64,000 nt of DNA, from assembly GCA_963664545.2 (NCBI GenBank), contig OY761475.2, forward strand, positions 1,663,247 to 1,727,246, given 5' to 3'. The notes under the pieces are model-generated. The model was not told the origin of the DNA. It did not search any database and worked only from the letters and a program-made list of their open reading frames with translations. This document shows, in pieces, positions 9,378 through 21,384 of the stretch (position 1 is its first letter; the number at the start of each line of letters is the position of its first letter). Made by a program: the position numbers and the translations under genes. This DNA is from Vicinamibacterales bacterium (GTDB lineage: Bacteria; Acidobacteriota; Vicinamibacteria; Vicinamibacterales; UBA8438).

Positions 9378-9614
9378 ATGAAGATCTCGATCAGCTACTG
9401 CAAGGTTTGAAACTACCTGCCCAAGGCCACCAGTCTGGCGGCCGCGATCAAGGATGCAACCGGCGTCGAAGCCGATGTGGTGGTCGGCGGGCGCGGACAG
9501 TTCGACGTCGTCGCCGACGGCGAACTGATCTTCTCGAAGCAAAAGGAGCAGCGGTTCCCCGAGCCCGACGAGGTCATCGGAGCCCTGCGTTCGCTCGCGG
9601 TCCCCACCGCGTAG
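9378..9614 (+). CDS. SelW/SelT/SelH (Rdx-fold) family selenoprotein with in-frame TGA at 9408-9410
   Basis: ATG 9378 to TAG 9612-9614 reads MKISISYCKV-U-NYLPKATSLAAAIKDATGVEADVVVGGRGQFDVVADGELIFSKQKEQRFPEPDEV... It has a CxxU redox motif and the 'G.F.V..DGELIFSK...RFPE' family block. It is absent from the ORF track because of the TGA. Confidence 0.75.
9425..9443 (+). promoter_or_regulatory. candidate bacterial SECIS hairpin
   Basis: GGCCACC-AGUCU-GGCGGCC: a 7-bp stem with one A.C mismatch and a GU-containing loop. It begins 14 nt 3' of UGA 9408-9410. Confidence 0.35.
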
Positions 9615-18368: not shown

Positions 18369-19874
18369 TCAACGCAGGGAAGAAGACACGCCCGACACCG
18401 CGTCGCAGGCGAGGACGTAGCTCGCGCCGTCGAGGCCCAGGCCGCGGTACGCGGGGGTCTGGCGCGCGAGGGTGCGGCGCGCGAAGTCCAGATAGGCGGG
18501 TTCCTCGGCGAGGTCGGTGAGGCGGGCGAGGACCGTCGCGGCGCGGCAGTTGAGGTCGAGGGGGTGGACGGGTTCGCGTAACAGGCCGACCGGCGCGTCG
18601 GGCCCGGTCAGCGTCGGGTCGCGGTCGAGGAAGCCGCCGGCGTCGTCCCACAGGGCGTGGCGGCAGTAGGCCATCAGCTCGCGGGGCATGTCGAGATAGA
18701 CGGGCTGGCCGGTGGCCTCGTAGAGGTCGAGCAGCGCCGCGCTCGCCAGCACCTGGTCGGCGAGGAGGCCGCGGGGGGCCGCATCGCCGGTGGCGGCGTG
18801 CCCGACGCCGGCACCGCGCTCGTAGGTCGCCCCGACCACCCGGTCGACCGACTCGGCCGCGAACTCGAGGAGCGAGCGGTCGTCGAGCACCGTCGCGCCG
18901 TGCACGTAGGCCGAGGCCATGACCGCGGTGGCGTCGGTGTAGACGGTCCGGTCGACGGCCCCCGCCCCCGGCGCCGGGGAATGCCCGGGCCGGTCCGGGT
19001 CGGGCGCCCCGCGCTGGCTGGCGAAGAAGCCGCCGTCGGGGTCGGCCAGGGTCGCGTGCACGAAGCGGACGAGGGCGCGCGCGCGGTCGGCGTAGTCTTC
19101 GCGCTCGAAGAGCGTCGACGCGGTCAGGTAGAGGTCGAGGAGGCGCGCGTTCGGCAGGAGCAGCTTCTCGGGCGCGGGTTCCGACCAGTCGCGGCCCGCG
19201 CAGTAGCGGAAGAAGCCGCCGTCCACGGGGTCCCACAGGCCGCCGCCGGCCATGGCGTCGAGGGTGCGGGTGACGACGCGGGTCAGGCCGGGGTCGCGGG
19301 TGCGGCGGCACAACCGCAGGGCGTCGGCGAGGGCGTCGGCCTCGACCCGCTTGGGGCCGGCGCCGAAGCCGGCCCAGGTCTCGTCGAACCGCGCCGTCAG
19401 CAGATCGCGGAGCCACCGCCCGGCGTCGTCGTCGAGCCCGGCGCCGTCGGCCGCATGGCCGTCGATCTGACCAACGCCGGCAGTACGATCCGCGCGGGCG
19501 TCGATGTCGGCGCGCCGCGCGGCGAACGCCGCGGCCACGTCCGCCAGCACCTGCGTCAGGGCGTCGGCGTCGAGATAGGCGCCGCCGCCCAGCAGGTCGC
19601 CGTCAGGCGTGAGGAACGCGGTGGTGGGCCAGCCGTCGAGGGTGTAGCGCGCGCTGACGTCGGGCCGGCGCTCGGCGTCGACCCTCACCGGCACGAACCG
19701 GCCGGCCACGAGTTGTACGACGCGCGGGTCGCGGAAGCTGAACCGGTCCATCTCGGCCGTCCACCGGCACCACGCGGTGCCGACGAACAGCAGCATCGGT
19801 TTCTGTTCCGCCGCCGCGCGGGCGAAGGCGTCGGCCCCCCAGTCGAGCCACCCGATCGATTCCGCCGCAGGCAT
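18369..19874 (-). CDS. thioredoxin-domain protein (DUF255/YyaL-like)
   Basis: ATG 19874. 'KPMLLFVGTAWCRWTAEMD' thioredoxin-like N-domain, with the second Cys of the usual CxxC replaced by Thr. Followed by an alpha-toroid-like repeat region. Confidence 0.8.
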   Translation of the reverse strand: MPAAESIGWLDWGADAFARAAAEQKPMLLFVGTAWCRWTAEMDRFSFRDPRVVQLVAGRFVPVRVDAERRPDVSARYTLDGWPTTAFLTPDGDLLGGGAYLDADALTQVLADVAAAFAARRADIDARADRTAGVGQIDGHAADGAGLDDDAGRWLRDLLTARFDETWAGFGAGPKRVEADALADALRLCRRTRDPGLTRVVTRTLDAMAGGGLWDPVDGGFFRYCAGRDWSEPAPEKLLLPNARLLDLYLTASTLFEREDYADRARALVRFVHATLADPDGGFFASQRGAPDPDRPGHSPAPGAGAVDRTVYTDATAVMASAYVHGATVLDDRSLLEFAAESVDRVVGATYERGAGVGHAATGDAAPRGLLADQVLASAALLDLYEATGQPVYLDMPRELMAYCRHALWDDAGGFLDRDPTLTGPDAPVGLLREPVHPLDLNCRAATVLARLTDLAEEPAYLDFARRTLARQTPAYRGLGLDGASYVLACDAVSGVSSSLR

Positions 19875-19945
19875 GCGGACAATGTACGGCAACCGCCGTT
19901 GCCGGGCCGCGCCAACCGCGGTTTCCGCGACACGGCGCAACGCGG

Positions 19946-20353
19946 CTACGGGTTCGCCTGGGCCAGCAGCAGCTCGTACATCCGGTCGATACGCTCTCCG
20001 CCACTCTCGATCTTGCGATCCAGCTCCGCATGGGCGGCCCGGTTCTCCGCTTGCGCAGCCTCGATCAGCGCGCGGTTCTCCGCCTGCGCGGCTTCGATCA
20101 GCGCGCGGTTCTCCGCCTGCGCGGCTTCGATCAGCGCGCGGTTCTCCGCCTGCGCGGCTTCGATCAACGCCCGGTCCTCGGCCTTCGCAGCTTCGATCGA
20201 CGCCCGCATCTCCGTCCGAACGGCGTCTATGGACGCCTGTACGTCGGCCGTGAATCCGGCCGCCAACGAGACCATGCCGACCACCAGGAGCCCGACCGCC
20301 GCCATCGCGGCGACGACCGCCGCTCCGGCATTCACCCATTCACGCTTGAACAT
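19946..20353 (-). CDS. membrane-anchored coiled-coil protein with 11-aa tandem repeats
   Basis: ATG 20353 (MFKREW). One TM helix, then 'RALIEAAQAEN' x4 with degenerate flanking copies. Lies between the OsmC-like and thioredoxin-like genes on the same strand. Confidence 0.55.
   Translation of the reverse strand: MFKREWVNAGAAVVAAMAAVGLLVVGMVSLAAGFTADVQASIDAVRTEMRASIEAAKAEDRALIEAAQAENRALIEAAQAENRALIEAAQAENRALIEAAQAENRAAHAELDRKIESGGERIDRMYELLLAQANP
20037..20234. repeat. 33-bp tandem repeat, about 6 units (3 near-identical core units)
   Basis: Unit 'gcgcggttctccgcctgcgcggcttcgatcagc' at 20070, 20103 and 20136, with degenerate units either side. In frame within CDS 19946-20353. Confidence 0.9.
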
Positions 20354-20455: not shown

Positions 20456-20926
20456 TCACTCCTCCGTGATGTCGGCGTCGATGTCGAGGTCGATGCAACC
20501 GCGCACGCTGTTGGCGGCGGGGCACTTCGTCGCGTGCGTGTCGACCGCCCGCTGCGCCTTCTCCAGGGTGCCGGCCGGGACGCGCAGGCGGTACCGCACG
20601 CGGATGGTCGTGATGCGCAGCACGTTGTCGATGGCCTGGATGTCGCCCTCCACGCTGGCCTGCAGCTTGTCCTTCGGCGCCGGGATGTCGCGCACCTCCA
20701 GTGCGCGTGCAAGGGTGCCGAGCAGTCAACCGCCGACGGCGCCGACCATGTAGTCGAGGGTGGCCGGCACGTCCTCGGGCGGCTCGACGCCGTAGAACGC
20801 CTTGATGCCCCCGTGGACGCCGAACCGAATCGGCTCGTCGAAACCCTCCAGATACGCGTGCCGCAGCGGACCGCCGATACGCTCGATCCGCAGCTTGCTC
20901 GTGTGCACCACTGCTGTTTCTGCCAC
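20456..20926 (-). CDS. OsmC/Ohr-family peroxiredoxin-like selenoprotein with in-frame TGA at 20726-20728
   Basis: Track ORFs 20456-20695 and 20726-21235 share a frame and are joined only by one TGA. The read-through gives '...LDYMVGAVGG-U-LLGTLARALEVRDI...HATKCPAANSVRG'. U sits where OsmC/Ohr has the peroxidatic Cys. GTG 20926 follows GGAGGA. Confidence 0.75.
20689..20707 (-). promoter_or_regulatory. candidate bacterial SECIS hairpin
   Basis: The mRNA reads CGCGCAC-UGGAG-GUGCGCG, a perfect 7-bp stem. It starts 18 nt 3' of the UGA at 20726-20728. Confidence 0.4.
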
Positions 20927-21384
20927 CAGATTCCTCCGTGCGCCCGCGCCTGGGAGCCCGCGGAAAGTCCCCGCTTGCGTCGGGACCGGCGATGCGTCCC
21001 GCGCCTCGCCGCCCCGCCGGCGCCTTCGGGCGCGGTGCGGAGCGGGAGTTCGCCGCGGGCTCCCGGCGTGCACCGACATGGCCGGGGCTAGCCCGGAGAG
21101 CCCCGCGCGTGCGCCCCCGGCTCCCGCGGGCTCCCGCCCCGGCGCCTCTGAACCTGATGCTACAATTTTCGGTCCGCGTACACCAAGGGCCGATGTCCGC
21201 ACCCTCACCCGGCGGTCCGCCGACTCCCCCGTCACCGGCTGCGCCCAGCGACGTTCATCGACCCGCCCGGCGGCTGGTCGACGGCGAACGGGCCGATGGC
21301 CCTGCCGAGGCGGCCGGGCCGCGGGGGCGGGGGCCGTCCGAGCCGTCCGAGCCGCCTTCCCCGTCGCCGCCCGCCCTCGGCGAC

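Follow-up and report, generated by a model that had tools for sequence, protein, structure and literature searches.

On the minus strand of the window, the whole 64,000-nucleotide stretch of DNA from a Vicinamibacterales bacterium that was analysed here, two apparent small genes lie in line with a single TGA codon between them. The question raised by this locus is whether that codon ends a protein or is translated. The original prediction was that the two open reading frames are one OsmC/Ohr-family gene in which the codon of the peroxidatic Cys is TGA and is read as selenocysteine (Sec). We find that the two apparent small genes are one intact gene for an antioxidant enzyme of the OsmC/Ohr type and, judging from sequence comparison, that this enzyme almost certainly carries Sec in place of its catalytic Cys.

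One reading frame and one OsmC/Ohr domain

Translation of the minus strand bore out that the open reading frames at 20456-20695 and 20726-21235 share a frame and are parted by the TGA at 20728-20726 alone, as had been proposed; all of the coordinates in the original prediction agreed with the sequence. The gene is complete (20456..20926, minus strand) and runs from 20926 to 20456 as a single frame of 156 codons plus a terminal TGA (20458-20456), with one in-frame UGA at codon 67 (20726..20728), where we predict Sec at the peroxidatic position. The frame opens with a GTG (20926-20924) that stands 5 nt downstream of a Shine-Dalgarno-like GGAGGA (20932..20937, read from the sequence, same strand), and homologues start with M-(A/G)-E-(x)-VVHTS at the point matching this GTG. 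Around the internal TGA, the read-through product is '...ATLDYMVGAVGG-U-LLGTLARALEVRDIP...THATKCPAANSVRGCI', with U at codon 67, which reproduces exactly the peptide originally written for it.

The proposed assignment to the OsmC family held in a profile search with Cys put for U: Pfam OsmC (PF02566) scored 46.5 bits against a threshold of 27.5, over residues 56-149. An AlphaFold2 model from 24 family members (pLDDT 86.3, pTM 0.79) was compared with the PDB using Foldseek and is a single OsmC/Ohr domain over its full length; the top 50 PDB matches were all OsmC/Ohr-type proteins, with TMq values up to 0.80. This end-to-end similarity to OsmC/Ohr structures means that the two halves constitute a domain only when joined. 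The best structural match is 2onf (Ta0195, a putative OsmC from Thermoplasma acidophilum; TMq 0.80, rmsd 2.2 Å over 150 columns), with E. coli OsmC (1qwi) and several Ohr structures next in the ranking. Ohr proteins (4mh4, 4noz, 1zb9 and 1n2f) and the OsmC proteins of E. coli and T. thermophilus (1qwi and 1ukk) have the same full-length fold, at TMq 0.66-0.74. The model puts U67 within its long central helix (H56-78).

The alignments also place the TGA at the first catalytic Cys, with the resolving Cys in a downstream block, as originally suggested. When compared with PDB sequences using phmmer, residue 67 aligned with the peroxidatic Cys of 4mh4 and 4noz (Burkholderia Ohr/OsmC-like proteins) and of 1ukk (Thermus OsmC), and Cys135 aligned with the resolving Cys of the same three proteins. 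The two redox positions of the OsmC/Ohr superfamily, a peroxidatic one where the central helix starts and a resolving one in a C-P-x-S/A block, are thus both present, with predicted Sec instead of Cys at the first. Cys135, the predicted resolving Cys from alignments and Ohr/OsmC structures, is encoded at 20522..20524 (minus strand) in a 'KCPAANS' block ('KCPAANSVRG') and is invariant in family alignments A2 and A4. A third, often conserved Cys, Cys144 ('RGCI'; 20495..20497, minus strand), is invariant in A4 and is S, A or G in the more distant loci L116, L120 and L126. R22, D58, R79, E93 and R109 are also invariant in the family alignments. The active site of Ohr has the catalytic residues Arg18 and Glu50, and no correspondence of our invariant residues to these is implied. 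Two conserved N-terminal blocks, VVHTS and GVHGGIK, are specific to the family.

Conservation of the TGA and of the downstream hairpin

The TGA is found at the same codon in 80/80 related genome loci, a set biased to close relatives because the best 80 of 521 matches were taken; all are from Vicinamibacterales or Acidobacteria MAGs, are 65-96% identical, and include one locus (L100) in which the stop was seen on inspection by hand. An assembly error at the TGA is very unlikely given this recurrence. For a wider view of the phylum, 401 evenly sampled Acidobacteriota genomes were searched, of which 66 have a homologue. Exactly one TGA lies inside 68/71 matches from this sample, including those at 35-45% identity, and its position was confirmed in 20 of the 30 phylum loci fetched; these counts, like those for the 80 loci, overstate independence because the compared genomes are kin. 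Sec forms strongly predominate in this branch across the phylum sample.

Three of the 71 matches lack the stop. One (G351) was rejected as a Cys form since it covers just residues 88-156 at a contig end, and another (G245) since it is an N-terminally degenerate remnant. The third (G312) is a true Cys form that reads 'AAAC-LTGTL'. Among database matches, the contig DNA of P0006 has TGC at the site, making it a genuine Cys form, and the P0003 protein reads 'ITSC' there, so that Cys does align with the TGA in homologues. Overall, the database matches are N-terminal fragments ending '...AVGG' or '...AVGA', C-terminal fragments that start just past there, and a few full-length proteins. Two of the full-length proteins have 'W' at the site; in P0002 the underlying codon is a TGA that had been translated with code 4, and JGI code-4 gene calls likewise yield 'W'.

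Both sides of the TGA evolve as coding sequence. In a set of 79 distinct sequences, the first, second and third codon positions had nucleotide diversities of 0.13, 0.07 and 0.45, respectively, before the TGA and of 0.18, 0.14 and 0.44 after it; because one frame shows this pattern on both sides, we conclude that both halves are under purifying selection. A scan of the whole window for sites with at least 12 open codons per side singled out this TGA: no other is flanked to its left and right by sequence of coding-type codon composition. Since no other TGA in the window has such a two-sided signal, TGA is not generally read through here; genome-wide recoding of TGA as a sense codon (code 4 or 25) was rejected on these grounds and because the gene itself ends in TGA. 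The locus has features expected of a selenoprotein gene, namely a UGA conserved among orthologues, coding sequence on both sides of it, and homologues with an aligned Cys (P0006, G312 and P0003).

A perfect 7-bp hairpin (stem CGCGCAC/GUGCGCG, apical loop UGGAG; 20689..20707, minus strand) begins 18 nt after the UGA, where the original prediction had placed it, and it has been maintained in evolution. A published hallmark of bacterial SECIS elements is a conserved G in a small apical loop that comes directly after the UGA (PMC1088965); the structure here is a stem-loop just past the UGA with a small loop containing G. By itself the hairpin is only mildly unusual. As a single sequence in DNA of 70% G+C, the region shows no extra stability against shuffles (fold z-score -0.69), and each strand of the window contains ~71 perfect 7-bp hairpins, so that any particular stretch of 20 nt would include one with a probability of ~2%.

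It is the comparative evidence that is decisive. Across 55 distinct close relatives the stem is 99% paired, G-U wobbles included, and 0/500 shuffles reached the observed score; the outermost pair is changed from C-G to G-C in seven of the 55. Across 15 phylum-wide sequences that share its register the stem is 98% paired, double changes occur in four of the seven pairs (C-G/G-C, G-C/A-U, C-G/U-A and A-U/G-C), slid-register controls all collapse and again 0/500 shuffles reached the observed score. This covariation count omits four loci (L116, L117, L119 and L121) with the hairpin in a shifted register; theirs is a different hairpin, displaced by a few bases, with GG again in the loop. The loop UGG is invariant, and an Ala codon in the stem is GCA in 54/55 sequences. 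Third-position diversity is 0.20 in the first 13 codons past the TGA versus 0.45-0.49 elsewhere (0.49 in the remainder of the downstream half); synonymous sites within the hairpin are frozen.

The two Cys forms with nucleotide sequence to compare differ in this respect. The G312 hairpin is degraded (-5.1 kcal/mol) and no longer has the loop GG, whilst P0006, with TGC at the site, retains its hairpin. Loss of the hairpin in Cys forms is therefore a trend from single cases and no rule, and because a Cys form can retain the hairpin, the hairpin alone is no proof of Sec decoding.

We also observed a coupled change in the protein. Arg74 to Gly and Asp80 to Gln occur together and follow the exchange of C-G for G-C in the outermost pair (window positions ~20707 and ~20689), so that '...ARAL..VRD' becomes '...AGAL..VRQ'. 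From these alignments, residues of the catalytic helix seem to be dictated by the structure of the RNA.

Predicted decoding of the UGA

The genome from which the window comes (7.31 Mb, 98.5% complete) contains all four components of the Sec machinery that were sought, each scoring over its curated cut-off: a tRNA-Sec with anticodon TCA (contig C1: 2639261; 63 bits), selB (contig C1: 5176317; 338 bits), selA (contig C1: 226474; 537 bits) and selD (contig C1: 579842; 296 bits). The four are dispersed over the chromosome and unclustered. Amongst the sampled genomes that bear the OsmC-like gene, selA was found in 62/66 and the remaining four have a tRNA-Sec scoring 68-76 bits. This co-occurrence is consistent with Sec decoding and is weakly discriminating, because selA is common in the phylum (301/401 sampled Acidobacteriota genomes). 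A SelW-like gene some 11 kb from the OsmC-like gene had been offered as a further sign that the organism decodes Sec, and that gene is real: it encodes 78 residues on the plus strand (9378-9614) with a 'YCKVU' (CxxU) motif, has its TGA at 9408-9410 and matches Pfam Rdx at 59 bits. A hairpin, GGCC.CCA-GUC-UGG.GGCC, lies ~17 nt past its UGA.

The OsmC-like TGA could instead be a true stop, which would leave either a pseudogene or two separate small genes, one for a 66-residue N-terminal peptide and one for an 'OsmC family protein' of 85-89 residues whose translation starts again at a Met or Val inside the frame. Public databases do contain fragments of just this kind (for example an 'OsmC family protein' of 85 aa and 'hypothetical protein' entries of 89-100 aa), and the gene's own terminal TGA marks TGA as a normal stop in this genome. 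This reading is nevertheless scarcely credible. The identical codon is kept in 80/80 loci (the best 80 of 521) and in 68/71 phylum matches, and purifying selection acts on both of its flanks in the same frame; the halves form one OsmC domain only if joined; the TGA falls exactly on a catalytic Cys for which Cys forms are known; and a covarying hairpin follows it in a genome with complete Sec machinery. A pseudogene in particular is unlikely because such upkeep of the codon and of both halves would not be expected of one.

A UGA that is translated might still receive a standard amino acid (Cys, Trp or Gly) through a near-cognate or suppressor tRNA, with the hairpin acting as a generic stimulator of read-through. 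The inserted residue is not identifiable from sequence analysis alone, and the JGI code-4 calls do show 'W' at the site; that 'W', however, is a gene-calling artefact. We judge insertion of a standard residue to be very improbable in a genome with a dedicated tRNA-Sec of anticodon TCA and with selA, selB and selD, the more so as at least one component of the Sec machinery is present in 66/66 of the genomes that bear the gene. The hairpin has the hallmarks of a bacterial SECIS, being properly spaced from the UGA and having a small apical loop in which G residues are invariant (criteria of PMC1088965), and the site is that of a redox Cys, a typical position of Sec/Cys exchange.

Relation to known OsmC proteins and predicted function

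The original prediction pointed to OsmC-like entries in published surveys of prokaryotic selenoproteomes, and such entries exist. An 'OsmC-like protein' was listed as a selenoprotein family in the Sargasso Sea survey (Zhang, Fomenko & Gladyshev 2005; PMC1088965), where three Sec and ten Cys sequences were assigned to COG1765/YhfA with the motif UxxT; the family also appears in the GOS survey of 2008 (PMC2398784) and in reviews of 2022 and 2026 (PMC9312934 and PMC13188914). Our gene resembles these in its PF02566 domain, in predicted Sec at the first redox Cys, in a SECIS directly downstream and in having Cys homologues. It differs, as far as the published descriptions set it apart, in reading U-L-L-G-T (UxxxT, or U-x-x-G-T) where the published family has UxxT. 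In addition, Cys forms outnumber Sec forms in the published family (10 versus 3 in the Sargasso Sea), whereas the Sec form is dominant in this branch (68/71). The published example accessions AACY01145085, MBR72571.1 and MCS5647933.1 were not found among the members of the database cluster; the members that were found (MBM63285.1, MBQ00209.1, the MDP73... series and MDG2041162.1) are all fragments. Among the papers that our literature search covered, none links OsmC selenoproteins with Acidobacteria.

One of these cluster members, MDG2041162.1, a C-terminal fragment with 79% identity to our protein, is filed under Ilumatobacter sp. (Actinomycetota), which might reflect either faulty binning or horizontal transfer from Acidobacteriota.

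The best NCBIfam match of the gene was the curated PGAP model NF041052 ('OsmC_like_Se, OsmC-related (seleno)protein'), residues 53-148 aligning with profile positions 39-137, and membership was rejected on score (23.9 bits against a cut-off of 95). Seven diverse members of the branch gave 19.5-28 bits or no match, and the best matches to this model in the window's genome are other, Cys-containing paralogues, which are also below the cut-off. Membership was likewise rejected for Ohr (TIGR03561; 14.7 against 88.85 bits), OsmC (TIGR03562; 16.9 against 85.8 bits) and SACOL1771 (TIGR03563; 22.7 against 166.15 bits). OsmC-like selenoproteins as a kind have been known, as predictions, since 2005, and this Acidobacteriota branch is outside the curated models; because its scores are so far below the cut-off, it goes unrecognised by NF041052 and is annotated as fragments.

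The Cys-containing paralogues are YhfA-like OsmC proteins, at C1:7189495-7190403 (L101/L103) and C1:955811-956224 (L102), that score 66-79 bits to NF041052. At C1:7189495-7190403, two OsmC-like matches lie in one open frame of 458 codons.

This gene and hundreds of orthologues, from soil and marine Vicinamibacterales and from other Acidobacteriota, are stored publicly as two meaningless fragments. A branch-specific model would correct many annotations and raise the selenoproteome counts for a dominant soil phylum. No concept is changed: Sec in the place of a peroxidatic Cys was already established, as were the bacterial SECIS and OsmC-like selenoproteins; the main value lies in annotation and in comparisons of Sec with Cys, and the near-complete displacement of the Cys form by the Sec form is useful for asking what advantage selenium has over sulfur in OsmC/Ohr chemistry.

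As to what the protein does, we infer a peroxidase function by homology, at an identity of 13-23% to characterised OsmC/Ohr enzymes. These enzymes have Cys where our protein has predicted Sec, and the N-terminal third of our protein has motifs of its own. A somewhat unlikely alternative is that the gene encodes a genuine selenoprotein that is not a hydroperoxide reductase and has another redox role or a role in handling sulfur or selenium, like the uncharacterised OsmC relatives of the YhfA/COG1765 type. The low identity fits this, as do the failure to reach any curated peroxidase model (the scores given above for TIGR03561, TIGR03562 and SACOL1771), the VVHTS and GVHGGIK blocks, which were unrecognised in the Ohr/OsmC alignments examined, and the nature of the top-ranking structure, 2onf, a 'putative OsmC' and Cys protein of uncharacterised function with 14% identity to ours. 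On the other side, both catalytic Cys positions of Ohr/OsmC are kept in their typical sequence contexts, and Sec at a peroxidatic position is the classic use of selenium in thiol peroxidases, as is established for the selenoproteins of the GPx and Prx families.

We consider it highly probable that the locus is one functional gene for a 156-residue protein of OsmC/Ohr fold and thiol-peroxidase type, with Sec67 predicted to be inserted under the direction of a SECIS. During translation, the hairpin downstream of UGA-67 would act as a bacterial SECIS element; SelB with Sec-tRNA(Sec) would bind it and deliver Sec to the UGA in place of termination. By homology, Sec67, at the start of the long catalytic helix, would attack a hydroperoxide and be left as a selenenic acid, which Cys135 would resolve to a selenenylsulfide. 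A thiol reductant, perhaps the monothiol DUF255 protein encoded downstream, would then recycle the selenenylsulfide.

That downstream gene (18369..19880, minus strand) encodes a DUF255/Thioredox_DsbH protein with a thioredoxin fold (Pfam PF03190, 92 bits), whose active-site motif is a conserved monothiol W-C-x-x-T/S (W-C-x-x-T here) instead of CxxC. Among the related loci (the best 80 of 521), the DUF255 gene lies downstream of the OsmC-like gene in 69/80, a divergent PLP-dependent decarboxylase gene lies upstream in 71/80 and a transketolase-like gene lies past the DUF255 gene in 57/80; since the genomes are related, this conserved synteny may be merely inherited. The DUF255 protein is a possible candidate for the reductant or redox partner of the OsmC-like protein. 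A bolder reading, which we hold only tentatively and think unlikely as a whole, is of a distinct, phylum-wide and nearly obligate-Sec lineage of OsmC in Acidobacteriota, in which the SECIS would lie in the catalytic helix and co-determine its residues and the monothiol DUF255 protein would perhaps be a dedicated partner. If true, it would amount to an undescribed two-component, selenium-dependent system of peroxide detoxification.

Two smaller observations concern the same neighbourhood. At one related locus, the DUF255 motif reads 'TH*CQWT', with a stop codon at the Trp position. In the window, the OsmC-like and DUF255 genes are separated by a gene (19946-20353, minus strand) for a small coiled-coil-type protein that has a hydrophobic segment near its N-terminus and the sequence 'ALIEAAQAENR' repeated in tandem; this protein had no Pfam match, and its repeat-rich gene is inserted in just this genome and its closest kin (10/80 loci, from the best 80 of 521).
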